A stretch of DNA of 64,000 nt from assembly GCF_048403405.1 (NCBI RefSeq), contig NZ_CP183129.1. One strand, 5' to 3'. The notes under the pieces are model-generated. The model saw only the letters and a program-made list of their open reading frames with translations, had not been told where the DNA came from and ran no database searches. This DNA is from Escherichia coli (lineage in GTDB: Bacteria; Pseudomonadota; Gammaproteobacteria; Enterobacterales; Enterobacteriaceae). The first letter of the stretch is position 1; every line of letters starts with the position of its first letter. This document shows, in pieces, positions 10,665-53,151 of this stretch. Both the position numbers and the translations under genes were made by a program.

Positions 10665-11404
10665 GTAACTGGCCTTATCCCCGCATCGTCGCCCATCGTG
10701 GCGGCGGTAAACTGGCCCCGGAGAACACCCTGGCAGCAATCGACGTCGGGGCAAAATACGGTCATAAGATGATCGAATTTGACGCGAAGTTATCGAAAGA
10801 TGGCGAGATCTTCCTGCTCCATGACGACAATCTTGAACGCACCAGCAACGGCTGGGGCGTCGCGGGCGATCTGAACTGGCAGGATTTACTGCGCGTGGAT
10901 GCAGGCAGTTGGTACAGCAAAGCGTTTAAAGGTGAGCCGCTACCGTTGCTTTCGCAGGTGGCGGAACGCTGTCGCGAACACGGGATGATGGCGAATATCG
11001 AAATCAAACCCACCACTGGCACCGGGCCATTAACGGGCAAAATGGTGGCGCTGGCGGCACGCGAACTGTGGGCCGATATGACGCCGCCGCTGCTGTCATC
11101 CTTTGAGATTGATGCTTTAGAAGCTGCACAACAGGCTGCACCGGAACTGCCGCGCGGTTTGTTGTTGGATGAGTGGCGCGACGACTGGCGAGAACTGACC
11201 GCGCGACTGGGCTGCGTCTCTATTCATCTCAATCATAAGTTGCTTGATAAAGCGCGAGTGATGCAGTTGAAAGACGCCGGATTACGGATTCTGGTTTATA
11301 CCGTCAATAAACCCCAGCGCGCGGCAGAGTTGCTGCGCTGGGGCGTGGATTGCATCTGCACCGATGCGATTGACGTGATTGGTCCGAACTTTACGGCCCA
11401 ATAG
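10661..11404 (+). CDS. ugpQ: Glycerophosphodiester phosphodiesterase UgpQ
   Basis: 247 aa, [23 protein letters not shown]... (GDPD family HRG motif). Confidence 0.92.
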
Positions 11405-11831
11405 TTTTCAACGGAATATCAGGCTGCGGCGTGCTGGGCTGATTCAGCATGTCGCCGTTTCTCCTCTCCGGCAACATATGCTGCTGATTCAACGAACTAT
11501 CCGGATTACGGTTGCTGTTTAACATCCCGCCGTTGGTGTTGGGCAGCATTTGCTGCCGGGCGGGATTTCGCTCCCCCGGCTGTGACTGCAACACCCGCTG
11601 AGAATTATTGTTGATCTGGTTTTCTAAATGCTGCTGTTGCAACTGCGTTTGCGTTTTCAGTTGCTGATTCAGCATCCCTTTTTGCTGGATTTGCTGCGTT
11701 TGCATTTGAGTCTGCATCCGCTGCTGGCTGGGGATCTGATATCCCGGCTGGTTGGGGTTGTTCAGAGTATTAATGGGCTGTGCAAAGCCGACAAACGGCA
11801 GGAGTGCCGTCAAAAGCAGAAGTCGTTTCAT
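11391..11831 (-). CDS. yhhA: Gln-rich secreted protein YhhA (146 aa)
   Basis: Signal peptide [17 protein letters not shown] followed by Q/N-rich low-complexity sequence; 3' end overlaps ugpQ 3' end (convergent). Confidence 0.8.
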
Positions 11832-16979: not shown

Positions 16980-17069
16980 GCGATCAGGAAGACCCTCGCG
17001 GAGAACCTGAAAGCACGACATTGCTCACATTGCTTCCAGTATTACTTAGCCAGCCGGGTGCTGGCTTTT
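16980..17069 (+). ncRNA. ryhB: RyhB small RNA (Fur-repressed, iron-sparing regulator)
   Basis: gcgatcaggaagaccctcgcggagaacctgaaagcacgacattgctcacattgcttccagtattacttagccagccgggtgctggctttt matches recalled RyhB; ends in a GC hairpin plus U-run; lies between yhhY and yhhX. Confidence 0.9.
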
Positions 17070-17190
17070 TTTTGATCTTTCGTTTTCAATTTATCCACGG
17101 GAAGTGCTTGTGTTCGTTATGCGCACTCCAGTAGGAACCACGTCCGCTTTGCGCTAAGGTGTAAATAATCACCTTAAAAAGGACGAAATC

Positions 17191-22412: not shown

Positions 22413-24512
22413 ATGATGGAGAAACACGGAGCTGAATTGCTTTTACAGCGGATGTTAGGAAATACCACCGCTACTTTCAGGGAAGGGCAATGGGAAGCCA
22501 TAGATGCAGTGGTTAATCAGCGGCGAAAACTGCTGGTTGTACAGCGCACCGGCTGGGGGAAAAGTGCCGTGTACTTCATCGCCAGTAAAATCTTCCGAGA
22601 TCGCGGCGCTGGCCCGACAATTATCATCTCTCCTTTGCTTGCCCTGATGCGTAACCAGGTTGCCGCCGCTGAACGGTTAGGTATTACGGCTGAAACGTTG
22701 AATTCTACAAACAGGGAAGAATGGCAGCGCATTAGCGATAAGTTGCTGCAAGGTGAGGTCGATTGCTTGCTGGTTTCCCCGGAACGTTTGGCAAACCAGG
22801 ACTTTATCGAAACGGTTTTGTATCCTATAGCCGATCGTATTGGCTTGCTTGTTGTCGACGAGGCGCACTGCATCTCTGATTGGGGCCACGATTTTCGCCC
22901 GGATTACCGACGTATATTAGATATTTTGCGCCAACTGCCTGCGAATACCCCTGTTCTGGGTACAACCGCGACAGCGAATAACCGTGTTGTTGAGGATATC
23001 CGTCAGCAATTGGGTGACATTGTGATTCAGCGTGGAACGCTGGCTCGCGAAAGTTTGGCGCTTGATGCCTTAGTCTTAGGAGAACAGTCATCCCGTCTGG
23101 CATGGTTAGCAACGGTTATCCCTCAGTTTTCCAAATCGGGAATTGTTTATACCCTGACGACTCGCGATGCTGAACTTGTCGCCGAGTGGTTAAGGAAAAA
23201 TGGTATCAGTGCATTTGCTTACTACAGCGGCGTGACTTGTGAAGGCGCGGAAGATTCTAATACTGCCAGGGAATATCTGGAGCAGGCACTGCTGGCAAAT
23301 AAAATCAAAGTGCTGGTCGCGACGACGGCATTAGGTATGGGGTTTGATAAACCTGATTTAGGTTTCGTCATTCATTATCAGATGCCGGGGTCTATTGTCG
23401 GTTACTACCAACAGGTGGGGCGTGCCGGGCGTGCTATAGATTCCGCAGTTGGCATATTGCTTTGTGGTGGTGAAGACCGCGCTATTCATCAATTCTTCCG
23501 TGAAAGCGCCTTTCCTGCGGAGGCGCAAATTCATGAAATACTCAACGTACTTAGCGAGAATGACGGTCTTACCCTACGAGGCATTGAACAACGGACGAAT
23601 CTTCGTTATGGGCAAATAGAAAAAGCACTGAAATTATTGGTAGCGGAAAATCCATCGCCTGTGGTGTATACCGAGAAATTATGGCGCAGAACTATCGTCA
23701 GTTTTTCTCCTGATCATGAACGAATTAACCATTTGATGAATCAGAGAAAAAGTGAGCTGGCAGACGTTGAAAGCTATATCACGACCAAGGAGTGCAAAAT
23801 GCAATTTCTGCGCCGTGCACTCGATGAGCCAAGTGCCGAACGTTGTGGTAAATGTAGTAGTTGTCTTCAGCATCCGTTATTGTCGCCCGACATTGATAGC
23901 GGCTTACTCCATGCGGCAAATTTATTTATTAAACACGCTGACCTGCCGTTAAATCTCAATAAACAGGTGGCAGCTGGGGCTTTTACGCAATACGGATTTA
24001 AAGGGAACTTGCCTGCGGGTTTACAAGGATCTACGGGGCGAATCCTTTCTCGTTGGGGAGATTCCGGGTGGGGAAAGCAGGTAGCACAGGAGAAAAAAAC
24101 GGGGCGCTTCAGTGATGAGCTGGTAGAAGCATGTGCGGAAATGGTTCGCCAACGCTGGAATCCGCATCCTGAACCAACCTGGGTATGCTGCGTTCCTTCA
24201 TTAAGACACCTCGACCTGGTTCCTGATTTTGCCCGGCGACTGGCGGCGAAACTTGGCTTACCTTTTATTGATGCCATTGAAAAAGTCGTGGACAATCCAC
24301 CGCAGAAAATGCAGCAAAACCGTTTTCACCAGTGTCAAAATCTCGACGGGGCGTTTGTGATTACCCCTCCTTTGATGCCAGGTCCGGCGTTGCTGGTTGA
24401 CGATATCGTGGATTCTGCATGGACGCTGACAGTTCTGACAGCACTGTTACGCCAGGCAGGTTGCCCGACGGTTTATCCTCTTGCCCTTGCTTCTACCTCG
24501 GTAAAAAATTGA
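22413..24512 (+). CDS. RecQ-family DNA helicase with C-terminal PRTase-like extension (699 aa); candidate toxin/effector of a PsyrTA/RqlHI-like module
   Basis: Motif 0 FREGQWEAI, Walker A TGWGKS, DEAH box VVDEAHCISDWGHDFRPDY, LGTTATA, HYQMPGSIVGYYQQVGRAGR; Zn-binding Cys cluster CKMQFLRRALDEPSAERCGKCSSC; C-terminal LLVDDIVDSAWTLTVL resembles a degenerate PRPP-binding loop. RBS GAGGGAGAAG before ATG. Not present at this locus in K-12. Confidence 0.85.
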   Translation: MMEKHGAELLLQRMLGNTTATFREGQWEAIDAVVNQRRKLLVVQRTGWGKSAVYFIASKIFRDRGAGPTIIISPLLALMRNQVAAAERLGITAETLNSTNREEWQRISDKLLQGEVDCLLVSPERLANQDFIETVLYPIADRIGLLVVDEAHCISDWGHDFRPDYRRILDILRQLPANTPVLGTTATANNRVVEDIRQQLGDIVIQRGTLARESLALDALVLGEQSSRLAWLATVIPQFSKSGIVYTLTTRDAELVAEWLRKNGISAFAYYSGVTCEGAEDSNTAREYLEQALLANKIKVLVATTALGMGFDKPDLGFVIHYQMPGSIVGYYQQVGRAGRAIDSAVGILLCGGEDRAIHQFFRESAFPAEAQIHEILNVLSENDGLTLRGIEQRTNLRYGQIEKALKLLVAENPSPVVYTEKLWRRTIVSFSPDHERINHLMNQRKSELADVESYITTKECKMQFLRRALDEPSAERCGKCSSCLQHPLLSPDIDSGLLHAANLFIKHADLPLNLNKQVAAGAFTQYGFKGNLPAGLQGSTGRILSRWGDSGWGKQVAQEKKTGRFSDELVEACAEMVRQRWNPHPEPTWVCCVPSLRHLDLVPDFARRLAAKLGLPFIDAIEKVVDNPPQKMQQNRFHQCQNLDGAFVITPPLMPGPALLVDDIVDSAWTLTVLTALLRQAGCPTVYPLALASTSVKN

Positions 24513-25714
24513 TGAATCTTTCAGCCAATGCACAAGCAACCCTCCTGCTAACCAGCGATTTTTCTCGCGCGGCGGCGAGTGAGTATAAACCTCTTAGTAA
24601 TAGTGAATGGGGGAAGTTTGCATTATGGCTGAAGCACCAACGTATCAGTCCCGCCGATCTTCTGGTGCCGCAACCGCAAGAGAAACTTACAGGCTGGAGC
24701 GATCCGCGTATTTCTCAGGAGCGTATTCTTGGCTTGCTGGCGCGTGGTCATAGTCTGGCGTTGGCGGTAGATAAGTGGCAACGCGCCGGATTATGGATCT
24801 TAACCCGCGGAGATGCCGATTATCCCGTTCGCTTGAAAAACCGATTGCGAACGGATGCTCCTCCCGTTTTATTTGGCTGCGGGAATAAAGCATTATTGCA
24901 AGCGGAAGGTATGGCGATTGTTGGCTCGCGAGATGCTCCGACTGCCGATTTGCGCTATACCCAACAACTGGCAGCGAAACTGGCCCAACAGGGGATTTGC
25001 GTTATCTCTGGTGGTGCGCGAGGTATTGATGAATGTGCAATGGCGTCGGCACTGGAGGCCGGGGGAACTGCCGTTGGCGTATTAGCTGATAGTTTGTTAA
25101 AAACAAGCACGTTAGTGAAATGGCGTAAAGGGCTTATAGCAGGCAACCTGGTGTTGATTTCACCGTTTTACCCAGAGGTACGTTTCACTGTCGGCAATGC
25201 GATGGCGCGGAATAAATATATTTATTGCCTTGCTGAAAGCGCAATGGTTGTACGTGCGGGAATGACCGGTGGAACGATAACCGGAGCGATGGAGGCGTTA
25301 AAACATCAGTGGCTGCCTGTTCTGGTTAAACCAAATCAGGATGTGCAATCAGCCAATTCACGTTTAGTAGAAAATGGGGCGTCATGGAGTGCTGAACAGG
25401 CTGAGAATGTGACGATCAGACTGCCAGATGTTCCTGGGCTGATGTATGACAGAGCACTCCGTAACGCTCAACCAGAATTGTTTTCGCTGCACGAAGATGA
25501 CGCAAATTACGCAGTAATGCCCGCGCATACCCCTGTCGATTTTTATCAACTCTTTGTGGCGGAACTGGCGATCCTTGCAAAGGAATCGATAAGTATTGAA
25601 AGGCTGGCGTCTTGTACTGGTTTAACCATCGAACAAATTAGTGTGTGGCTGAACCGCGCAGAAGAAGAGGGAAGGGTTATCCGATTGGGCGAAGGTCATT
25701 ATCAGTTCAGGTAA
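24512..25714 (+). CDS. DprA/Smf-like (SLOG-superfamily) protein (400 aa); candidate antitoxin/partner
   Basis: ORF 24419..25714; ATG at 24512 (MNLSANAQ...) overlaps the helicase TGA by 1 nt. DprA hallmarks: DADYPVRLKNRLRTDAPPVLFGCGNKALL, Rossmann segment IVGSRDAPT...ISGGARGIDECAM, C-terminal winged-helix-like region. Confidence 0.85.
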   Translation: MNLSANAQATLLLTSDFSRAAASEYKPLSNSEWGKFALWLKHQRISPADLLVPQPQEKLTGWSDPRISQERILGLLARGHSLALAVDKWQRAGLWILTRGDADYPVRLKNRLRTDAPPVLFGCGNKALLQAEGMAIVGSRDAPTADLRYTQQLAAKLAQQGICVISGGARGIDECAMASALEAGGTAVGVLADSLLKTSTLVKWRKGLIAGNLVLISPFYPEVRFTVGNAMARNKYIYCLAESAMVVRAGMTGGTITGAMEALKHQWLPVLVKPNQDVQSANSRLVENGASWSAEQAENVTIRLPDVPGLMYDRALRNAQPELFSLHEDDANYAVMPAHTPVDFYQLFVAELAILAKESISIERLASCTGLTIEQISVWLNRAEEEGRVIRLGEGHYQFR

Positions 25715-37773: not shown

Positions 37774-38478
37774 ATGAAATTCAATCTATCTAATTTATCC
37801 GCAGTTTTACTCGCATCAGGTATGCTGATGTCAACTGCGGTAACCGCTGCGCCAGGCGATGCATCACAATTTGGTGGTGCGGATACAGACTGGAGCACCG
37901 TTGATTATCCAAAACTCACCGATATGGATAGCAACACCGATGCGATGGGCGGAAACATCCGCTTTACTGGTCGTGTGGTTAAAGCGACGTGTAAGGTTGC
38001 TACAGAATCGAAACAGATTGAAGTGGTACTGCCAGTCGTACCTTCTAACGCTTTCACGGGCATTGATACCGAAGCAACGGGTGCCAGTAACCAGACTGAC
38101 TTCAACATTAAATTGACTGATTGTAGCAATACGGACAGTCAAAATATTGAATTTCGTTTTACTGGCGTAGCAGACGGTGCCAACCAGACGCTTGCCAATG
38201 AAGTGGAAGGAGCTGCTGATGCTGATGGTACTGGCGAAGCGGGAGCTACGGGTGTAGGGATTCGTATTTATTCTAAAAACACGACAACTGATGGCCTGAT
38301 TAAGCTGAACACACAAACTCCCCAGGGGAGTAGTTCTTCAGCAGCCTACGTGATTCCTGGCGATGCAGCCACTCATGATTTTACTGCGGCATTTACCGCG
38401 GGCTATGCTCAGAACGGTAGTACCGTTGCACCAGGTCTGGTGAAATCAACGGCAAGTTTCGTCGTGCTGTACGAATAA
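37774..38478 (+). CDS. Fimbrial major subunit (chaperone-usher pilin, 234 aa)
   Basis: Signal peptide MKFNLSNLSAVLLASGMLMSTAVTAA; conserved Cys pair; C-terminal SFVVLYE resembles a pilin donor-strand-acceptor terminus; RBS aaggaaagg. Confidence 0.8.
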   Translation: MKFNLSNLSAVLLASGMLMSTAVTAAPGDASQFGGADTDWSTVDYPKLTDMDSNTDAMGGNIRFTGRVVKATCKVATESKQIEVVLPVVPSNAFTGIDTEATGASNQTDFNIKLTDCSNTDSQNIEFRFTGVADGANQTLANEVEGAADADGTGEAGATGVGIRIYSKNTTTDGLIKLNTQTPQGSSSSAAYVIPGDAATHDFTAAFTAGYAQNGSTVAPGLVKSTASFVVLYE

Positions 38479-38598
38479 TTACAGCAAGATAATTTCAGGT
38501 TACAGTTACTTGTAACCTGAAATTAATATTACATGTTTATTTGTAATAAATAGACATGCATCAGTAATTACAATTAATTTCATCTACAAGGATGCAGT

Positions 38599-39351
38599 AT
38601 GAGATGGATTTCAAAAAATAAATGTTTTTCGAATAGAAACATTAATTCTTTGCTGAAGACCCAATATATCATAAGGGCCGGTGCTCTATTTTTACTATCC
38701 GCCATATCTATCAATGCTATTGCTGCGGGTGGCTTCGGTCTTGGTTCTACGCGTCTGGTTTATCCATCTGACAGTCAGCAAATTACGCTAAGTGTACAGA
38801 ATGGTGGGGCTAACACCAGCTATTTAATCCAGTCATGGATTGATGACAATCAAAGCAGTAAAAAAAGTCAGGATTTTGTGGTTACGCCTCCTTTATTTAT
38901 GTTACCAACGCGAAAAGAAGCCTCATTGAGGATAATGTTTATTGGTAAATCACAGTTACCGACTGATCGCGAAACATTATTCTGGATGAATGTGAAAGCG
39001 ATTCCGCCAACGGATGAGAAGAATACCCAGAAAAACACGTTACAACTGGCGTTACAAAACAGAATTAAATTATTTTACCGTCCGACTAATTTACCCGTTC
39101 AAGCTGGTAAAGCACGGGATATGCTGCGATTTAAATACGAAGGTAAACAGCTAAGAGTCATTAACCCTTCTCCCTATTATCTGACGGTGACTGGAATCAG
39201 GGTGCAAGGGGCAAAATTACCCAATGCGTTTGTTCCACCGAAAAGTGACGTAACAGTGTCTTCACCAGTGATGCTAGCCGGTGAAATTACTTATCAAACT
39301 ATCAATGATTACGGTGCCACAACGGCCAGGCAAAAGGGAACGATGCAATAA
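38599..39351 (+). CDS. Periplasmic fimbrial chaperone (PapD-like)
   Basis: 250 aa; conserved chaperone segments LGSTRLVYPSDSQ and NRIKLFYRP. Confidence 0.85.
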   Translation: MRWISKNKCFSNRNINSLLKTQYIIRAGALFLLSAISINAIAAGGFGLGSTRLVYPSDSQQITLSVQNGGANTSYLIQSWIDDNQSSKKSQDFVVTPPLFMLPTRKEASLRIMFIGKSQLPTDRETLFWMNVKAIPPTDEKNTQKNTLQLALQNRIKLFYRPTNLPVQAGKARDMLRFKYEGKQLRVINPSPYYLTVTGIRVQGAKLPNAFVPPKSDVTVSSPVMLAGEITYQTINDYGATTARQKGTMQ

Positions 39352-39392
39352 ACCTGGAAGATTAAAACGTTAAAGCAACTCAGGTCAGGGAT

Positions 39393-41984
39393 ATGAACCT
39401 AAAGCTCAGAAAACTCGAACACAGGATGGCAAGGCAGAAGCAGATGAGGCGGTGTATGCTGCTTCTACTGACACTTTTGCCTGCGTGTTCAGTGGCGGGT
39501 ATGCGCTTTAACCCTGCATTCCTGTCGGGTGATACAGAAGCTGTTGCTGATTTATCTCGTTTTGAGAAAGGGATGACATATCTACCTGGTAGTTATGAGG
39601 TTGAAATATGGGTCAATGATTCGCCTTTGACATCACGTAAGGTTACTTTCAAAGCTGATGAGCAGAATCAGTTGATCCCCTGTTTTTCGCTCGATGAGTT
39701 AGTTACTTTAGGAATTAACAAAAGTGCATTGCCGGAACAGGCGCAAGCAGAGGGAAATAATTGTCTCGATTTACGTATATGGTTCGCAGAAGTTCAATAC
39801 ACTCCTGAACTGGATGCGCAACGACTCAAACTGACCTTTCCGCAGGCAATATTAAAGCATGAAGCCCGTGGTTATATTCCACCTGAGGAATGGGATAATG
39901 GTATCCCGGCCATTCTTATTAATTATGATTTTTCTGGCAACAGTGATCGTGGAGACTATGCGTCTGATAGTTATTATTTAAATCTCCGTTCAGGTTTAAA
40001 TTTAGGGGCGTGGCGTTTTCGTGATTATTCTACATGGAGTCGTTCAGGTAATTCACCGGGTAAAATTGCACATGTGAGTAGTACGTTACAACGAGTAATT
40101 ATTCCTTTTAAAAGTGAATTAACACTAGGTGATACCTGGTCTTCATCGGATGTTTTCGACAGTGTGAGTATTCGTGGTGCTAAACTTGAATCCGATGAAA
40201 ACATGCTACCCGATAGCCAAAGTGGTTTTGCCCCCACTGTGCGCGGTATTGCTAAAAGCAATGCTCAGGTAACGATCAAACAAAATGGCTATGTTATTTA
40301 TCAGACATATACTCCACCGGGACCCTTTGAAATCAACGATCTGAACCCTACGTCTTCCGCTGGGGATTTGGAAGTTACGATCAAAGAGTCTGATAATTCC
40401 GAAACTATCTATACCATTCCTTACGCCGCTGTTCCCATTCTTCAACGCGAAGGGCATATTAAATATTCGGCAACTGCCGGTAAATATCGTAGCAATAGCT
40501 ATAATCAAAACAGTCCGAATGTCTTTCAAGGAGATTTGATTTGGGGGTTACCCTGGGATATTACCGCCTACGGAGGGATGCAATACTCAAATAATTATCG
40601 GGCAATAGCACTCGGGCTTGGGTTCAACCTTGGTATGTTTGGTGCGACGTCATTTGATTTAACGCAAGCCAATAGCACGCTTGCCGATGGCAGTAAACAT
40701 CAAGGGCAATCGTACCGTTTCCTATATTCAAAATCGTTAGTGCAGACAGGTACGGCTTTTCAGATTATTGGTTATCGCTATTCGACGGAGGGATTTTATT
40801 CGTTGAGTGATACCACATACAAACAAATGTCGGGTACGGTTATCGATCCAGATACCCTTAATGAAAAAGACTATGTTTATAACTGGAATGATTTTTATAA
40901 TTTACGTTATAACAAAAGAGGAAAGTTTCAGGCAAATATATCGCAACCATTGGGCGAATATGGCTCTATGTATTTGGCGGCAAGTCAACAAACTTACTGG
41001 AATACGAATAATAAAGATACCTTGTATCAGGTCGGCTATAATACGAGTGTACATGGGATTTATTTAAATATTGCTTATAATTATAGTAAGTCACCAGGTT
41101 CAGATGCGGACAGAATCTTATCCGTAAATGTCTCATTGCCGATCAGCAATTGGTTATCACCAGCTGTCGATGGGCGTACTGCGACAAATTCTATGACAGC
41201 AACTTATGGTTATAGTCAGGATAATAGCGGTCATGTAAATCAGTATGCCGGAGTATCTGGATCGCTGCTGGAACAACATAATCTCAACTATAATATTCAA
41301 CAAAATTTTGCCAACCAGAATAATGGCGAAAATGGCTCGGTAGGGATAAATTACCGTGGTACATATGGTTCACTAAATTCTGGATACAGCTACGATAATA
41401 ATGGTAACCAGCAATTTAACTATGGTTTAAGTGGTGCCCTGGTTATTCACGAAAATGGTCTCACGTTAAGCCAGCCGTTAGGAGAAACAAATATACTGAT
41501 AAAAGCACCTGGGGCAAACAATGTAAATGTGGAACGCGGAACGGGGGTTAAAACAGACTGGCGTGGCTATGCTGTCGTACCTTATGCCACGGAATATCGG
41601 CGTAATAATATCTCTTTAGACCCTATGTCTATGAGTATGCATACAGAATTAGATGCTACTACTATGGAAGTGATACCCAGCAAAGGTGCTTTAGTTCGTG
41701 CTGAGTTTAATGCACATGTCGGTATTCGAGGTTTATTTAATGTTCATTATCGTAATAAACCAGTTCCATTTGGTGCGACGGTCAGTGTACCCACTGAGGG
41801 GACAACTCAGATTACAGGAATAGTGGGTGACAGTGGACAGGTTTATCTCTCCGGTTTGCCTTTACAAGGCATAATAAATATACAGTGGGGAGAAAGTTCT
41901 TATCAGCAATGTCGGGCAAACTATCAATTACCGGAAAGTGAGTTGGATAATGCCATTAGCTATGCAAATCTGGAGTGCCGCTAA
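39393..41984 (+). CDS. Outer membrane fimbrial usher protein
   Basis: 863 aa; N-terminal FNPAFL usher motif; beta-rich, size typical of ushers. The exact start within the first ~35 codons is uncertain. Confidence 0.88.
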   Translation: MNLKLRKLEHRMARQKQMRRCMLLLLTLLPACSVAGMRFNPAFLSGDTEAVADLSRFEKGMTYLPGSYEVEIWVNDSPLTSRKVTFKADEQNQLIPCFSLDELVTLGINKSALPEQAQAEGNNCLDLRIWFAEVQYTPELDAQRLKLTFPQAILKHEARGYIPPEEWDNGIPAILINYDFSGNSDRGDYASDSYYLNLRSGLNLGAWRFRDYSTWSRSGNSPGKIAHVSSTLQRVIIPFKSELTLGDTWSSSDVFDSVSIRGAKLESDENMLPDSQSGFAPTVRGIAKSNAQVTIKQNGYVIYQTYTPPGPFEINDLNPTSSAGDLEVTIKESDNSETIYTIPYAAVPILQREGHIKYSATAGKYRSNSYNQNSPNVFQGDLIWGLPWDITAYGGMQYSNNYRAIALGLGFNLGMFGATSFDLTQANSTLADGSKHQGQSYRFLYSKSLVQTGTAFQIIGYRYSTEGFYSLSDTTYKQMSGTVIDPDTLNEKDYVYNWNDFYNLRYNKRGKFQANISQPLGEYGSMYLAASQQTYWNTNNKDTLYQVGYNTSVHGIYLNIAYNYSKSPGSDADRILSVNVSLPISNWLSPAVDGRTATNSMTATYGYSQDNSGHVNQYAGVSGSLLEQHNLNYNIQQNFANQNNGENGSVGINYRGTYGSLNSGYSYDNNGNQQFNYGLSGALVIHENGLTLSQPLGETNILIKAPGANNVNVERGTGVKTDWRGYAVVPYATEYRRNNISLDPMSMSMHTELDATTMEVIPSKGALVRAEFNAHVGIRGLFNVHYRNKPVPFGATVSVPTEGTTQITGIVGDSGQVYLSGLPLQGIINIQWGESSYQQCRANYQLPESELDNAISYANLECR

Positions 41985-42547
41985 TGAATATATTACAAAA
42001 ATTTATTCTATTAATGTTTAGATCATTGTTCATGATGGTGATTTCATATAACGCACTGGCTAACGATACTGTAGTGGTCACATTTACAGGACAATTATTA
42101 GCGAAAACGTGTGATATTACAACTGGAAGTAAAGACCAGCCAGTAAACATGGGAACTTATGACGTCAATGATTTTTTGAATGTAGGGGATGTTTCTGGCA
42201 GCCATACATTTACGATCAATCTGGAAGGATGTCCTACAACAACCAGTACTGTTTATAGTTCAGGAGTAAGTGCTAATGTGCAGTTTACCGGGGATGCTGA
42301 TGCTATAAATACCACTTTATTACGCCTTACTTCCAGCGCGGATAGTGCAACTGGAGTGGGCATCGAAATTTTAGACAGTAATGATAAAATTATAGCAATT
42401 AATAGTGAATCAGGATTCAAAGAGTTAATTTTAAATAATAATGGCGATGCCAGTTTAACCTTTAAACTCCGCTATAAGTCAACTCAGCAAAACGTACATG
42501 CGGGACAGGCGAACGCACTATTGTACTTTGATATAGACTATCAGTGA
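41984..42547 (+). CDS. Fimbrial minor subunit
   Basis: ORF 41975..42547 begins at GTG; ATG at 41984 overlaps the usher stop and gives signal peptide MNILQKFILLMFRSLFMMVISYNALA; pilin-like Cys pair. Confidence 0.78.
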   Translation: MNILQKFILLMFRSLFMMVISYNALANDTVVVTFTGQLLAKTCDITTGSKDQPVNMGTYDVNDFLNVGDVSGSHTFTINLEGCPTTTSTVYSSGVSANVQFTGDADAINTTLLRLTSSADSATGVGIEILDSNDKIIAINSESGFKELILNNNGDASLTFKLRYKSTQQNVHAGQANALLYFDIDYQ

Positions 42548-42554
42548 GGTTAAT

Positions 42555-43079
42555 ATGACACGATATTGGAATTTAATTGCCCTATTATTCTCTGTGATAT
42601 CTATGTCATCCATTGCTGATGATACAACGCATGCAGGTGTTGTACGCATCGAAGGAATTATAACAGCAAAGACTTGTATTGTTGCCGATGAGTCTAAAAA
42701 TTTCACAGTTAACATGCCTGATGTTCCCAGTTATACGGTGAGAAATTCAGGGAGTGTTACTGAAAAAATTGGCTTCTCTTTAAAGTTAACCCGTTGTGGC
42801 AGTGATGTCAGTAATGCCAATGTCACGTTTGATGGAATACCAGTTAGTGAAGACGCAGCCCTATATAAACTGGAAGAGGGCTCAGTCGATGGGTTAGCAC
42901 TGGCTATTTTTGATAACAACAGACAAAGTATTAGTAATGGTATAAAGAGTACAAGTTATGCCCTTACACCATTGGTAGATAATACATTGCATTTCTTTGC
43001 TGCTTATAAAGCTATAAAAAATGATGTACAACCAGGAGATGCGAATGCATCAGTTTCCTTTATCGTCACTTATGATTAA
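42555..43079 (+). CDS. Fimbrial minor subunit
   Basis: 174 aa with signal peptide MTRYWNLIALLFSVISMSSIA; pilin-like C-terminus SFIVTYD. Confidence 0.78.
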   Translation: MTRYWNLIALLFSVISMSSIADDTTHAGVVRIEGIITAKTCIVADESKNFTVNMPDVPSYTVRNSGSVTEKIGFSLKLTRCGSDVSNANVTFDGIPVSEDAALYKLEEGSVDGLALAIFDNNRQSISNGIKSTSYALTPLVDNTLHFFAAYKAIKNDVQPGDANASVSFIVTYD

Positions 43080-43824
43080 CGTGCTGATATGCATTTTAAT
43101 ATGTTGCACAAATGCGCAGGCAGGAGTTGTTGTTGGCGGTACTCGTTTTGTTTACCCAGAAAAGCAGTCATCAATTTCGGTCGAGCTTAAAAATACTGCC
43201 AGTAAAGATATGCTGGTTAAAATTTCCGTGACACCTGATGATGGACGTCAGTTAAAAGGGACACTGGAATCCCAGCCTTTACTTCCAGATAAGGCGTTTA
43301 TTGCCACACCACCATTATTGGTACTTAAACAAGATAAAAATACCAAAATAAGAATCAATCGCGTGGGGGGGCAGTTACCTATAGATCGTGAGAGTTTATT
43401 TATACTGAATATTGCAGCGTTACCTGCTCAGGAACAAAACTCACAGCTTAAGAATGAAAATCAACTCCAGGTGGCTGTACGTAATAGGATGAAAATATTT
43501 TACCGCCCAGAGACGTTATCAGGTAATCCACTTGACGCTTATCAACAGTTACGCTGGTCGCGAAACAATGAAGCTGTCACCGTTTTTAACCCTACGCCCT
43601 GGTATGTGACACTCTATAATTTATCTATTGATGGTAAAAGCATAAATGGTGGCATGGTTGCACCATTTAGTCATCGCCAACAGGATTGGTGTCAGCGGCA
43701 AGGATATTGTGAGATTAACTGGCAAACACTAGATCTTTACAATAATGCCTTACCCGTATGGAGCGTAAAATTAAATGTTTTACAAAATAATGCTATTATG
43801 GGTGCAGTAGCGATACATGGATAA
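43045..43824 (+). CDS. Second periplasmic fimbrial chaperone (PapD-like)
   Basis: ORF 43021..43824; ATG at 43045 follows AGGAGA and gives MHQFPLSSLMINVLICILICCTNAQA; motifs GGTRFVYPEKQ and NRMKIFYRP. Confidence 0.82.
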   Translation: MHQFPLSSLMINVLICILICCTNAQAGVVVGGTRFVYPEKQSSISVELKNTASKDMLVKISVTPDDGRQLKGTLESQPLLPDKAFIATPPLLVLKQDKNTKIRINRVGGQLPIDRESLFILNIAALPAQEQNSQLKNENQLQVAVRNRMKIFYRPETLSGNPLDAYQQLRWSRNNEAVTVFNPTPWYVTLYNLSIDGKSINGGMVAPFSHRQQDWCQRQGYCEINWQTLDLYNNALPVWSVKLNVLQNNAIMGAVAIHG

Positions 43825-43834
43825 CTGGAGAAGC

Positions 43835-44968
43835 ATGATGCTTACTTATTTTTGGGGGAATATAAAAGCAATTTGTATATTGTTTGTTCTTTTAGTCAGT
43901 AGCTGCTATAACATAGTATATGCTGAAGATATGGGACGGGATCGCGCCTTTTGTTATCCTGGTGCACCAGGTAATAATACTACTCCTGCGACATTTTCTT
44001 ATAATTTTGGTACGGTAATTGTCTCAGATGTTAATAATAATTCGCCTGGGACAGTATTACCCTCGCAGGACTGGAAAATAGGGCATTATAAGGCTTATTG
44101 TAATTCTCTGGATGATTATGAGGTTTATTTTTCTGGTGTTTCTGGGATTGATCCGTCAGGAGCGTCTGGTGATCATCAGGGGAGCGATATATTTATTCCT
44201 TTGACTCATGAAATATCTGTCTCGACACATGTAAAGCTCTATAATAAAAATGGCACAATGACAGATAAGGCAGTACCTTTTGACAACTATAGCACCAATT
44301 ATCCAGCAGACAGAAGTAAACCATCAAGTTGGGCCTCAGGAACAGAAGGTTATATAAAAATCAGACTTGATAAAAAAATAATATCCGATATCTCAATAAA
44401 TAACGTATTGCTGGTTTCTTTGTATGTCAGCCAGTTTCCAACAGAGCACGGACCAATTCCAGTATTTAATGCTTATATTGGCAACTTAAATATTGAAGTT
44501 CCACAAGGTTGCACAATTAATGAGGGAACTAGTTTTACCGTTAATATGCCGGATGTCTGGGCCAGCGAATTAAGTCGGGCTGGTGCTGGAGTAAAACCAA
44601 CAGGTATTTCTCCAGTGGCAACCACTATTCCGATAAATTGTACGAACAAAGATATTGATGCCGTAATGACGCTGGTTTTCGATGGCAATATTTCATCAAC
44701 GAGAGATGTTAATGGTCGGCAAAGCATTATTCAGGCGGAGGATAACCCCGACGTTGGCATTATGATTATGGATAGCCAACAGGAATCCGTAGACTTAAAT
44801 GCATTGGCTGCGCATGTTGGTGTGCCATTTAAGTTAGTTGAAAACCAGGCTGAGTCAGCTCAGACGGCAGATGTGACTTTTCTGTCTCTCCCTGTAAGTA
44901 CCACAGGGCGACGCCCTGCTGCAGGCCGTTATAATGCCCTGGCTGTTTTGCGGGTGGAATACCAATGA
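43835..44968 (+). CDS. Putative fimbrial tip adhesin (two-domain pilin-like, about 377 aa)
   Basis: ORF 43817..44968; start likely MMLTYFWGNIKAICILFVLLVSS at 43835; size and terminal position fit a lectin-plus-pilin adhesin. Start uncertain by up to 6 codons. Confidence 0.7.
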   Translation: MMLTYFWGNIKAICILFVLLVSSCYNIVYAEDMGRDRAFCYPGAPGNNTTPATFSYNFGTVIVSDVNNNSPGTVLPSQDWKIGHYKAYCNSLDDYEVYFSGVSGIDPSGASGDHQGSDIFIPLTHEISVSTHVKLYNKNGTMTDKAVPFDNYSTNYPADRSKPSSWASGTEGYIKIRLDKKIISDISINNVLLVSLYVSQFPTEHGPIPVFNAYIGNLNIEVPQGCTINEGTSFTVNMPDVWASELSRAGAGVKPTGISPVATTIPINCTNKDIDAVMTLVFDGNISSTRDVNGRQSIIQAEDNPDVGIMIMDSQQESVDLNALAAHVGVPFKLVENQAESAQTADVTFLSLPVSTTGRRPAAGRYNALAVLRVEYQ

Positions 44969-45312: not shown

Positions 45313-45419
45313 TGCCGGATGCGACGTGAACGTCTTATTGGCCTACAAAATCATGCAAATTCAATATATTGCATAAACCACGTAGGCCTGATAAGCGTAG
45401 CGCATCAGGCAGTTTTTTT
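45313..45419. repeat. REP/BIME element with trailing T-run (terminator-like on + strand)
   Basis: tgccggatgcgacgtgaacgtcttattggcctac ... gtaggcctgataagcgtagcgcatcaggc followed by agttttttt. Confidence 0.6.
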
Positions 45420-48387: not shown

Positions 48388-49146
48388 ATGAAACAAACAC
48401 AACGTCACAACGGTATTATCGAACTGGTTAAACAGCAGGGTTATGTCAGTACCGAGGAACTGGTGGAGCACTTCTCCGTCAGCCCGCAGACTATTCGTCG
48501 CGACCTCAACGAGCTGGCAGAGCAAAACCTGATCCTGCGGCATCATGGCGGCGCGGCGCTGCCTTCCAGTTCGGTTAACACGCCGTGGCACGATCGTAAA
48601 GCCACCCAGACCGAAGAAAAAGAGCGCATCGCCCGCAAAGTGGCGGAGCAAATCCCCAACGGCTCGACGCTGTTTATCGATATCGGCACCACCCCGGAAG
48701 CGGTGGCGCACGCGCTGCTTAATCACAGCAATTTGCGCATTGTCACCAACAATCTCAACGTCGCTAACACGTTGATGGTAAAAGAAGATTTTCGCATTAT
48801 TCTCGCCGGTGGCGAATTACGTAGCCGCGATGGTGGGATCATAGGCGAAGCGACGCTCGATTTTATCTCCCAGTTCCGCCTTGATTTCGGCATTCTGGGG
48901 ATTAGTGGCATCGATAGCGACGGCTCGCTGCTGGAGTTCGATTACCACGAAGTTCGCACCAAACGCGCCATTATTGAGAACTCGCGCCACGTTATGCTGG
49001 TTGTCGATCACTCGAAATTTGGCCGTAACGCGATGGTCAATATGGGCAGTATCAGCATGGTAGATGCCGTCTACACCGACGCCCCGCCGCCAGTAAGCGT
49101 CATGCAGGTGCTGACGGACCATCATATTCAACTGGAGCTGTGCTGA
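48388..49146 (+). CDS. glpR: Glycerol-3-phosphate regulon repressor GlpR (DeoR family)
   Basis: 252 aa; N-terminal HTH VSTEELVEHFSVSPQTIRRDLNEL. Confidence 0.92.
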   Translation: MKQTQRHNGIIELVKQQGYVSTEELVEHFSVSPQTIRRDLNELAEQNLILRHHGGAALPSSSVNTPWHDRKATQTEEKERIARKVAEQIPNGSTLFIDIGTTPEAVAHALLNHSNLRIVTNNLNVANTLMVKEDFRIILAGGELRSRDGGIIGEATLDFISQFRLDFGILGISGIDSDGSLLEFDYHEVRTKRAIIENSRHVMLVVDHSKFGRNAMVNMGSISMVDAVYTDAPPPVSVMQVLTDHHIQLELC

Positions 49147-50726
49147 TCCTGCACGGCTTCCCACGTCAGACCAAAACGCGCCAGGTATTTGCGTAGCCGA
49201 TCTGCGTCGTTGACGCTGGCTTTGCCCTGGCGCGAAACATCAAAAAGCTGGCGACCGGCAGCAGAAAGCGATTTTGCCTGGCGGCAGATAGCGATAACGT
49301 GTTCCAGTTGCAGCCGATCAAAGAGGTCGATGTTTTCTGCCTCAGCGCCCAGCAGTTGCGTAAGCGCGGAGGGACGGCTCTCCTGCCAGTTATAGCGCAG
49401 ACGATTTATCTCATCTTCTACGGTTTCCAGAGTAATGCGCCCGCTATCGGCAAAGGTTGCCATCCGCGTGACGCTGGCAGAAAGTTCGCGAAAGTTACCG
49501 CGCCATGTTGCCTGGGGAGATGTCGCAAAAGCCAGCCAGGCGCGCCGTGCTTCGGTGTTAAAACGCACGCTGTCGCCGGTGAGTGAGGCGTGGCGCTCCA
49601 CTTCATAATCCAGGTTAGGTTCAATATCTTCCTGGCGCTGGCGCAGTCCCGGCAGGGTGAAGGTCCAGAGATTGATCCGCGCGTACAGATCTTCGCGAAA
49701 TTTGCCTTCAGCAACCAGCTGGCGCAAATCGCGCACCGTTCCGGCGATCAGCTGAAAATCACTGCTCACCTGGCGATCGCTGCCAAATGGGTAAAAGGTT
49801 TTCTCTTCAATGGCTTTCAGCAACATCGCCTGTTCGTCTGCGCCCAGTTCGCCAATCTCATCAAGAAACAACATGCCACCGTTGGCGCTGCGTAATAATC
49901 CTTCACGAGATTCCCGCGCCCCGGTAAACGCGCCTTTCACATGACCAAACAGCGTCGACATGGCGGTATCGCCGCGCAGGGTGGCGCAGTTCACTTCTAC
50001 AAATGCGCCGCTAAACTGATGCCGCGCCTGTTTCAATTCAAAGATGCGTCGTGCCAGAAATGACTTGCCCGCCCCGGTCGGGCCGTTGAGCAGGATCGGT
50101 GCGCGGGATTTAATCGCCACTTTTTCGATCTGCTCAATCATGCGGTTGAAGTGGGGGTTACGCGTGGCAATGCCGGATTTGAGGAAATCGAGGGTTTGCT
50201 GGCGTTCCTCGGCAAAGCGGCTGGCGATGGCGTTATAACGGCTTAAATCGAGATCGATAATCGTCACTTCACCTGCGCCGCGCGGTTGTTCTTTTTTGCG
50301 CGGTGGTGAAGATTGTATCAACCGGGCGGGTAGATAACGCGCTTCTGCCAGCAGAAACCAGCAAATCTGCGCGACGTGGGTACCGGTGGTGATGTGAATT
50401 AAATAGTCTTCTTTTTCTGGCTGGAACGCGTAACCACGGGCGAAATCATGCAGGCAGGCGTAAACCTCTTCGAAATCCCACGGGTTATGCAGTTCTATCT
50501 CAACGCCCACCACTTCTGTTTCTGGCGAAACGCTGGCGATATCGCGTTTAAGCGTTTCGAATAGCGAGCGCGAGCGGGCGTCGTGCAATAATTCCAGCCG
50601 ATCGATAACTAACGATTCTTGCTGGCATAGACAGAGTGTCGGACGCCATTTTGACCAGCGCTGACTGCCGCGCCCGGCATAATCCAGCACGGTACCGACA
50701 AAGCCAAAAGCCACTGTTTTACGCAT
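49128..50726 (-). CDS. rtcR: Sigma-54-dependent transcriptional activator RtcR
   Basis: 532 aa; AAA+ sigma-54 interaction domain (LLNGPTGAGKS; GAFTGA); 3' end overlaps the glpR 3' end. Confidence 0.9.
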   Translation of the reverse strand: MRKTVAFGFVGTVLDYAGRGSQRWSKWRPTLCLCQQESLVIDRLELLHDARSRSLFETLKRDIASVSPETEVVGVEIELHNPWDFEEVYACLHDFARGYAFQPEKEDYLIHITTGTHVAQICWFLLAEARYLPARLIQSSPPRKKEQPRGAGEVTIIDLDLSRYNAIASRFAEERQQTLDFLKSGIATRNPHFNRMIEQIEKVAIKSRAPILLNGPTGAGKSFLARRIFELKQARHQFSGAFVEVNCATLRGDTAMSTLFGHVKGAFTGARESREGLLRSANGGMLFLDEIGELGADEQAMLLKAIEEKTFYPFGSDRQVSSDFQLIAGTVRDLRQLVAEGKFREDLYARINLWTFTLPGLRQRQEDIEPNLDYEVERHASLTGDSVRFNTEARRAWLAFATSPQATWRGNFRELSASVTRMATFADSGRITLETVEDEINRLRYNWQESRPSALTQLLGAEAENIDLFDRLQLEHVIAICRQAKSLSAAGRQLFDVSRQGKASVNDADRLRKYLARFGLTWEAVQDQHSSS

Positions 50727-50852
50727 CTTAGATATCCTTATAAAAGACGATATTTCATTATCGGTAAATCGGCTTTGCGGGAAATCTCCGTTTACGGACG
50801 TAAAGATTTAATCTTTTTAGAAACAATAAATTAATCTGCTTATTTAATTTTC

Positions 50853-50868
50853 TGGCACGACGGTTGCA
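50853..50868 (+). promoter_or_regulatory. Sigma-54 (-24/-12) promoter of rtcBA
   Basis: TGGCAC-gacgg-TTGCA matches the sigma-54 consensus TGGCAC-N5-TTGCW; about 37 bp upstream of the rtcB start, divergent from rtcR. Confidence 0.8.
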
Positions 50869-50904
50869 ATTATCAGGACATACCAACGAAAAGAGAAAAA
50901 CAAA

Positions 50905-52131
50905 ATGAATTACGAATTACTGACCACTGAAAATGCCCCGGTAAAAATGTGGACCAAAGGCGTGCCGGTAGAAGCCGATGCGCGTCAGCAACTTATTAAT
51001 ACGGCGAAGATGCCGTTTATTTTCAAACATATTGCGGTAATGCCTGATGTACACCTGGGTAAAGGTTCCACCATTGGTAGCGTGATCCCGACCAAAGGGG
51101 CGATTATTCCGGCGGCGGTGGGCGTGGATATCGGTTGTGGAATGAACGCGCTGCGCACCGCGTTAACGGCGGCTGACCTGCCTGAAAACCTGGCAGAACT
51201 GCGTCAGGCGATTGAAACTGCCGTGCCGCACGGGCGTACTACCGGACGTTGTAAACGTGATAAAGGCGCATGGGAAAATCCGCCTGTTAACGTCGATGCG
51301 AAATGGGCTGAGCTGGAAGCCGGTTATCAGTGGTTAACGCAAAAATATCCCCGTTTCCTTAACACTAACAACTATAAACACCTGGGAACGCTGGGAACGG
51401 GTAACCACTTTATTGAAATCTGCCTTGATGAATCGGACCAGGTGTGGATTATGCTGCACTCCGGTTCACGCGGAATCGGTAATGCCATCGGAACTTACTT
51501 TATCGATCTGGCGCAAAAAGAGATGCAGGAAACGCTTGAAACATTGCCGTCGCGTGATCTGGCGTACTTTATGGAAGGTACGGAATACTTTGATGATTAC
51601 CTGAAAGCCGTGGCCTGGGCGCAGCTTTTTGCCAGCCTTAACCGCGATGCGATGATGGAAAACGTGGTAACGGCGTTGCAGAGCATTACGCAGAAAACGG
51701 TCAGACAGCCACAAACGCTGGCGATGGAAGAGATCAACTGTCACCACAACTATGTGCAAAAAGAACAGCACTTTGGTGAAGAGATCTACGTGACGCGTAA
51801 AGGCGCGGTGTCTGCGCGTGCTGGTCAATATGGAATTATTCCCGGTTCGATGGGGGCGAAGAGCTTTATCGTCCGTGGGCTGGGAAATGAAGAGTCGTTC
51901 TGTTCGTGCAGCCACGGTGCCGGGCGGGTTATGAGCCGTACCAAAGCGAAAAAACTGTTCAGCGTGGAAGATCAAATTCGTGCCACCGCGCATGTGGAAT
52001 GCCGTAAAGATGCCGAAGTGATCGACGAAATCCCGATGGCGTATAAAGATATTGATGCGGTGATGGCGGCACAAAGCGATCTGGTGGAAGTTATCTACAC
52101 CCTGCGTCAGGTGGTGTGCGTAAAAGGATAA
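50905..52131 (+). CDS. rtcB: RNA-splicing ligase RtcB
   Basis: 408 aa; MNYELLTTENAPVKMWTKGVPVEADARQQL; His-rich metal site NCHHNY. Confidence 0.93.
   Translation: MNYELLTTENAPVKMWTKGVPVEADARQQLINTAKMPFIFKHIAVMPDVHLGKGSTIGSVIPTKGAIIPAAVGVDIGCGMNALRTALTAADLPENLAELRQAIETAVPHGRTTGRCKRDKGAWENPPVNVDAKWAELEAGYQWLTQKYPRFLNTNNYKHLGTLGTGNHFIEICLDESDQVWIMLHSGSRGIGNAIGTYFIDLAQKEMQETLETLPSRDLAYFMEGTEYFDDYLKAVAWAQLFASLNRDAMMENVVTALQSITQKTVRQPQTLAMEEINCHHNYVQKEQHFGEEIYVTRKGAVSARAGQYGIIPGSMGAKSFIVRGLGNEESFCSCSHGAGRVMSRTKAKKLFSVEDQIRATAHVECRKDAEVIDEIPMAYKDIDAVMAAQSDLVEVIYTLRQVVCVKG

Positions 52132-53151
<1,020 letters not shown>

Follow-up and report, generated by a model that had tools for sequence, protein, structure and literature searches.

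What does it mean when two pairs of convergent genes on one stretch of chromosome share the nucleotides of their 3' ends? The window analysed here, a stretch of 64,000 nucleotides of the Escherichia coli chromosome (RefSeq assembly GCF_048403405.1, contig NZ_CP183129.1), lies in reverse orientation relative to K-12 and carries, in order, liv, ugpBAECQ, yhhA, ggt and, further on, glg, glpD, glpEGR, rtcR, rtcBA and malT. Two of its operons end inside a gene on the other strand: glpR runs tail-to-tail into rtcR, and ugpQ into yhhA (Table 1). The original prediction held that such overlaps leave no room for terminators, that the transcripts must therefore be mutually antisense at their 3' ends, and that this could cause transcriptional interference or processing by RNase III. 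Here, we propose, at a probability of roughly 80%, that these are two ordinary convergent coding-sequence (CDS) overlaps of the E. coli core genome, in which the antisense complementarity is real but a by-product of tight packing.

The overlaps themselves are exact. Read codon by codon, glpR stops at a TGA at 49144-49146 (GlpR ending in HHIQLELC) and rtcR at a TGA at 49130-49128 (TCA on the plus strand; RtcR ending in VQDQHSSS), with the codons of RtcR (D)QHSSS and its stop being the antisense of the codons of GlpR (I)QLELC and its stop. At the other junction, ugpQ stops at a TAG at 11402-11404 (UgpQ ending in GPNFTAQ) and yhhA at a TAA at 11393-11391 (TTA on the plus strand; YhhA ending in LKTIGP), and the UgpQ tail F-TAQ with its stop is the antisense reading of YhhA TIGP and its stop. 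Both overlaps are identical in the RefSeq annotation of strain TUM14771, which matches the window at 99.99% identity over 64 kb (7 mismatches, 1 gap), and they recur in the RefSeq annotation of K-12 MG1655, about 96% identical to the window in the regions compared, with the same 19 bp between rtcR (3558268..3559866) and glpR (3559848..3560605) and the same 14 bp between yhhA (3586943..3587383) and ugpQ (3587370..3588113). Hence the predicted lengths hold by open reading frames, by codon reading and by RefSeq annotation of both strains. True stop codons cannot lie upstream of these positions because it is the first in-frame stop that closes an open reading frame, and both frames are borne out by orthologues. 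As in the definition of convergent overlapping pairs, each pair consists of opposite-strand protein-coding genes with common 3' nucleotides, and the partners are genuine and conserved.

Table 1. Genes, overlaps and transcript-end features at the two convergent junctions (window coordinates)
Feature	Position	Strand	Basis or remark
glpR CDS, glycerol-3-phosphate regulon repressor, DeoR-family, 252 aa	48388..49146	+	ORF calling, RefSeq; last gene of glpEGR
rtcR CDS, sigma-54 activator of rtcBA, 532 aa	49128..50726	-	ORF calling, RefSeq, orthologues
glpR/rtcR tail-to-tail CDS overlap, 19 bp	49128..49146	both	Direct codon reading, RefSeq
Perfect 22-nt RNA duplex captured by p19, RNase III-type product, inside glpR	48679..48700	both	PMC7373196 Table S3
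glpR-strand 3' extension antisense to rtcR	49147..49480	+	Published Rho region, coarse resolution
Long imperfect hairpin followed by CGUUUUGG, rtcR sense strand	49171..49232	-	dG -21.6 kcal/mol
ugpQ CDS, glycerophosphodiester phosphodiesterase, 247 aa	10661..11404	+	ORF calling, RefSeq; last gene of ugpBAECQ
yhhA CDS, DUF2756, 146 aa, Q-rich	11391..11831	-	ORF calling, RefSeq, Pfam
ugpQ/yhhA tail-to-tail CDS overlap, 14 bp	11391..11404	both	Direct codon reading, RefSeq
H1, stem-loop of 12-13 bp (11426..11455) followed by GUUUCUCCUCUCC	11426..11468	+	Candidate ugp terminator; terminator scan
H2, GC-rich stem-loop of 10 bp (11311..11344) followed by UUAUUGAC	11303..11344	-	Candidate yhhA terminator; folding

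How might such overlaps have arisen? An RtcR query against species-representative genomes found rtcR adjoining glpR in Escherichia sp., E. whittamii, E. albertii, Klebsiella oxytoca, Intestinirhabdus alba and Superficieibacter electus, with the two genes convergent and overlapping in all of them. The overlap is 19 bp in the Escherichia species and in K. oxytoca, 35 bp in Intestinirhabdus, in which a small deletion shifts the rtcR frame, and 139 bp in Superficieibacter, in which the rtcR TGA has become TGC; these last two shifts are thus the behaviour expected of a drifting, unconstrained stop. Since the alignment of RtcR to distant orthologues (Pseudomonas, Verrucomicrobia, Desulfobulbia) ends at about residue 526, the last six residues (DQHSSS, 527-532) are a non-conserved tail, and this tail is the antisense reading of the conserved C-terminal codons of GlpR. 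Orthologues in Salmonella, Yokenella, Enterobacter, Citrobacter and Phytobacter have the same yhhA/ugpQ arrangement. The overlap measures 14 bp in E. coli and 17 bp in Citrobacter tructae, and Salmonella, Yokenella, Enterobacter sp. SA187 and Phytobacter share a 4-bp TTAA stop-on-stop; a 91-bp gap with a REP-like insert keeps the two genes apart in Buttiauxella. In the cross-genus alignment, the YhhA C-terminus, IPLKT(I/V)xP and stop, is conserved and the UgpQ residues past GPNF are variable. One gene of each pair thus carries a short, non-conserved C-terminal tail (DQHSSS in RtcR, TAQ in UgpQ), the frame of which, having no stop of its own, crosses in antisense into the conserved final codons of the partner and runs to the first chance stop. 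The comparison shows both junctions to be consistent with standard stop-codon drift and 3' extension.

The frequency of the overlaps also fits with their being ordinary. E. coli has been counted as having 75 convergent overlapping CDS pairs (Huvet & Stumpf 2014, PMC4161906). The window annotation holds 8 convergent CDS pairs among its 55 features, with gaps of 47, 42, -19, 153, 45, 37, -14 and 199 bp, the other convergent pairs thus including typical gaps of 37-47 bp, unlike the two overlapping pairs. Extrapolated from these 8 pairs among 55 features, a genome would hold about 600 convergent pairs, which puts the overlap rate at roughly 12% (75 of the extrapolated ~600), and at that rate the probability of finding 2 overlapping pairs among 8 in one window is about 0.25. 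Two overlaps per window are no excess over chance. Antisense frames entering the 3' end of each gene reach a stop after a few to a few dozen bases, and an overlap of 14-19 bp is the expected outcome where a gene lacks its own stop. Across the species, 5422 of 5426 complete E. coli genomes carry both junctions, and the 19-bp overlap is retained in a divergent rtcR allele within E. coli.

We also considered whether the absence of any difference from K-12 over 49123..49202 might signal selection on the overlap itself, and rejected it: the 80 nt around the overlap (49098..49177) range from 90 to 100% identity across E. coli, and other Escherichia species differ from the window strain around the glpR/rtcR overlap. 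As a separate observation, the 2.5-kb glpR-rtcR query is unusually divergent in E. coli (90-95% identity in 1187 genomes, 95-99% in 4231), and the 3' half of rtcR differs by up to about 12%, in parts, between K-12 and the window strain. Among E. coli database proteins, YhhA varies in length from 96 to 165 aa, which suggests expansion and contraction of internal repeats.

If the overlaps are ordinary, where do the transcripts end? The argument that terminators have no room fails because it takes for granted that they must be intergenic. Rho sites and hairpins can sit in the neighbouring gene, such that a CDS overlap does not equate to the absence of a terminator and is no reason to flag a pair as anomalous. 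At ugpQ/yhhA, candidate hairpins lie inside the partner CDS, and in K-12 glpR uses Rho inside rtcR. The latter is based on the data of Adams et al. (2021, PMC7815308), whose Rho termination regions include one on the glpR strand that they class as antisense to rtcR, with reads upstream and downstream of 154 and 29 without bicyclomycin and of 153 and 256 with it, and a Rho score of 8.9 (p 2.7e-27; PMC7815308 Supp. file 2). Its best coordinate, K-12 3559514 (-), maps to window position 49480, 334 nt beyond the glpR stop, a position that is approximate given that the scoring compares 800-nt windows.

The Rho data come from MG1655, in which glpR is a pseudogene owing to a 1-bp deletion at the position corresponding to window 48538 (K-12 3560455) that halts translation at nt 318 of 758; the window strain has an intact glpR, and Rho may load earlier or differently in MG1655 than it does there. 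From the K-12 data, we infer for the window strain that glpEGR transcripts would enter rtcR in antisense and that Rho would stop them within the first few hundred nucleotides. A hairpin scan and folding found no strong intrinsic terminator candidate past the glpR stop (49147..49480), and folding found no terminator-like structure after the rtcR stop (z -0.04). Nor was a clear rut signature seen after the four stop codons, with C/G ratios of 0.7-1.5 in 80-nt windows falling within background (90th percentile 1.55). The imperfect hairpin at the 3' end of rtcR (Table 1) is among the 10 best candidates for a hairpin with a U-tail in the window and ends some 40-50 nt before the rtcR stop. It is probably a by-product of the rtcR coding sequence; if active, it would yield an rtcR mRNA without a stop codon. 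Curated K-12 Term-seq lists hold no 3' ends in 3559500-3560099, which low expression in the conditions used could explain.

At the ugpQ/yhhA junction, each strand has a candidate hairpin of its own. H1 begins 22 nt past the ugpQ stop, inside yhhA, and its stem-loop followed by GUUUCUCC fits the pattern of a GC-rich stem-loop and then a U-rich tract on the transcribed strand; its dG is -27.1 with flanks (z -2.9) and -16.6 for the stem alone, and it is only partly conserved across genera. H2 begins 47 nt past the yhhA stop, within ugpQ codons, and has the sequence make-up of an intrinsic terminator (dG -23.4 to -24.5, z -3.5). It ranks 4th of 360 hairpin and U-tail candidates on both strands of the window (128 kb of strand), which puts it among clear intergenic terminators (that behind ggt, for example), with equally strong candidates occurring at about 0.017 per 100 nt. 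Thus, ugp transcripts would end at H1 and yhhA transcripts at H2, each within the CDS of the partner, these embedded candidate hairpins being the most likely ends; if both are used, the two mRNAs would be complementary over about 165 nt (11303..11468). Curated K-12 Term-seq lists hold no 3' ends in 3587000-3588099, a range that includes H1 and H2, and here too low expression could be the explanation.

The H2 hairpin is found in 8 of 8 genera, and we considered its conservation as proof of a terminator. This was rejected because the arms are codons of conserved UgpQ residues (PQR / RWG), because Buttiauxella, with its genes 91 bp apart, still has the hairpin, and because the U-tract is not conserved; the conservation is explicable by coding constraint alone. 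In Enterobacter sp. SA187, paired Q>G and W>A replacements in UgpQ keep the H2 stem intact, a co-substitution that could equally reflect a contact between the two residues in the UgpQ protein. As an observation in its own right, published Term-seq from two growth conditions has an RNA 3' end, independent of Rho, that falls 51 nt into the yhhA ORF, at about window position 11780 (-), or K-12 3586994 (+) (PMC7815308, Supp. files 1 and 3); it may come from early termination, or from processing, in the signal-peptide codons.

What might the antisense RNA do? If both genes of a pair are transcribed through their stops, their mRNAs are complementary over at least 19 or 14 nt, so that mutual antisense at the 3' ends follows by logic, as had been predicted; the yhhA-ugpQ overlap and the glpR-strand extension have in addition been published (PMC12288877, PMC7815308). 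One option is that the pairs are regulatory excludons, in which whichever gene is transcribed more strongly would repress the other, by transcriptional interference and by RNase III cutting the RNA duplex, with ugp, induced by phosphate starvation, repressing yhhA and constitutive glpEGR repressing rtcR. We consider this option, both examples included, unlikely. yhhA-ugpQ is indeed among the 165 convergent excludons that ExcludonFinder detected in at least 50% of 58 MG1655 RNA-seq samples (PMC12288877 Table 1), a set in which the predicted terminators overlap the neighbouring gene in 146 of the 165 pairs, but rtcR-glpR is absent from that list (PMC12288877). Excludon pairs are reported to have higher synteny (PMC12288877), and across Enterobacteriaceae both pairs stay packed tail-to-tail; the length of the overlap, however, is not conserved, and Buttiauxella has its spacer. 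Moreover, yhhA and ugpQ/C/E rise together at stationary-phase entry in O157:H7 (published population-level array data), which is not what mutual exclusion predicts.

The evidence from double-stranded RNA bears on the same option. RNA of the glpR strand covers several hundred nucleotides antisense to rtcR (PMC7815308), and an RNase III-type duplex captured by p19 maps within glpR with 1 mismatch to the window (PMC7373196). This duplex shows that some antisense RNA covers glpR, reaching about 450 nt into the gene and being cut by RNase III, but the signal is at the detection limit, with 1.1 and 1.5 RPM on the two strands and so barely over the cut-off of 1 RPM (Huang et al., PMC7373196), and it lies about 450 nt upstream of the glpR stop, away from the overlap. 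No p19 duplexes for rtcR, yhhA or ugpQ were among the matches listed (PMC7373196 Table S3). As a class, convergent 3' overlaps are poor in p19-captured dsRNA, with about 38-fold less of it than at divergent overlaps (PMC7373196), and validation of convergent excludons by p19 was described as "not feasible" (PMC12288877). A sigma-70 promoter scan around both junctions returned 0 sites and hence no sign of an independent antisense promoter.

Natural deletions of the rtc locus also speak against regulation of this kind. About 577 of 5425 complete E. coli genomes (about 10%) cover less than 80% of the glpR-rtcR query and appear to lack most of rtcR with glpR intact. The two deletions that we inspected, one of them corresponding to window 49221..53011, take out rtcB entirely together with most of rtcR and part of rtcA, and the deleted alleles keep an rtcR 3' remnant of 93 or 399 nt, fused to an rtcA 3' remnant and still overlapping the intact glpR by 19 bp; at least two different rtc deletions thus exist in E. 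coli. With rtcR mostly deleted and glpR intact, glpR does not require an active rtcR partner. The suggestion of interference or RNase III processing at the overlaps themselves is not supported by these data. Interference or cleavage at either pair is probably weak, because the genes are poorly or conditionally expressed. Should the regulatory coupling be true nonetheless (ugp versus yhhA, glpEGR versus rtcR), it would add one more excludon and no new principle.

Returning to the reading of ordinary overlaps with embedded transcript ends, a further option is that the embedded signals are selected, dual-use sequence, with H2 a working yhhA terminator written in UgpQ codons and with Rho-limited readthrough from glpEGR setting the basal level of RtcR. 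We regard this as improbable; if it were true, glycerol and phosphate metabolism would be linked to RNA repair through the basal RtcR level.

Could converging RNA polymerases terminate each other at the overlap? Ju et al. in 2019 reportedly used SEnd-seq to describe bidirectional terminators between convergent E. coli genes. Such terminators are Rho-independent and most efficient for highly expressed pairs, and a collision model exists for convergent E. coli pairs that needs a stem-loop in the nascent RNA (bioRxiv 10.1101/2022.10.23.513370). The likeness to our pairs lies in the convergent genes, the 3'-overlapping transcripts and the involvement of a stem-loop, H1 and H2 flanking the ugpQ/yhhA junction. 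Nevertheless, we judge collision-driven bidirectional termination to be highly improbable here. The model works best for highly expressed pairs, and glpR, rtcR, ugpQ and yhhA are weakly or conditionally expressed. Unlike the SEnd-seq terminators, neither pair has an intergenic hairpin common to both strands: at ugpQ/yhhA, a single intergenic hairpin with an A-tract and a U-tract is absent, there being no intergenic DNA, and H1 and H2 are separate hairpins at a distance of some 80 nt, both of them with a U-rich tail on a single strand only. The signal on the glpR strand is, moreover, Rho-dependent.

That one gene of each pair ends earlier or is no gene at all, as the non-conserved RtcR and UgpQ tails inside the overlaps and the uncharacterised, low-complexity and length-variable yhhA might suggest, has a chance close to nil and is effectively refuted, as the stops are those of long, conserved ORFs, orthologues of all four genes hold the same frame throughout, YhhA has a Pfam match (DUF2756) as well as its conserved C-terminus, and the curated K-12 annotation agrees.

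How do the two ordinary overlaps compare with what has been described? Convergent overlapping pairs are a described class (Huvet & Stumpf 2014, PMC4161906; PairWise Neighbours database, PMC2716372), and both pairs resemble it in having a short 3' overlap (4-19 bp in most relatives) and in stop loss or drift. They fall within the 75 reported for E. coli with no substantive difference; the 139-bp rtcR extension in Superficieibacter is unusual for the class. Set against published excludons (PMC12288877), yhhA-ugpQ is alike, being listed and having predicted terminators inside the transcription unit of the neighbour, whereas rtcR-glpR is unlike, being unlisted, and in the available array data the yhhA and ugp genes are co-induced. 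The glpR-strand signal is one of many bicyclomycin-sensitive regions antisense to a convergent gene (PMC7815308), with the difference that it was measured in a strain with a glpR pseudogene and that the window lacks a clear C-rich rut element. The overlaps are thus already known, from curated K-12 annotation, as members of a described class and, for one pair, from a published map; no paper describing the rtcR/glpR overlap explicitly turned up in a search of the literature.

A number of other features were observed in the window. A search of the whole window against Rfam at gathering thresholds returned RyhB (17009..17073, +, 83 bits) and ES036/CssrF (45347..45389, +, 43.6 bits) only, neither of them near an overlap; the latter sRNA is opposite in strand to glpD and lies just past its 3' end. 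In K-12, Genomic SELEX has placed a peak of RpoF (sigma-28) holoenzyme inside ugpQ (U00096.2, 3585866) and a peak of RpoS in the ggt-yhhA spacer (PMC5493296). Between glgP and glpD, seven genes (37774..44968, +) form a chaperone-usher fimbrial operon. Finally, a two-gene insert between yhgN and gntU (22413..25714, +), annotated in RefSeq as a RecQ-family helicase and DprA, matches PsyrT (E=0, full length) and PsyrA (E 2e-201) in PADLOC, a known toxin-antitoxin and anti-phage pair, with its two ORFs overlapping by 94 bp.
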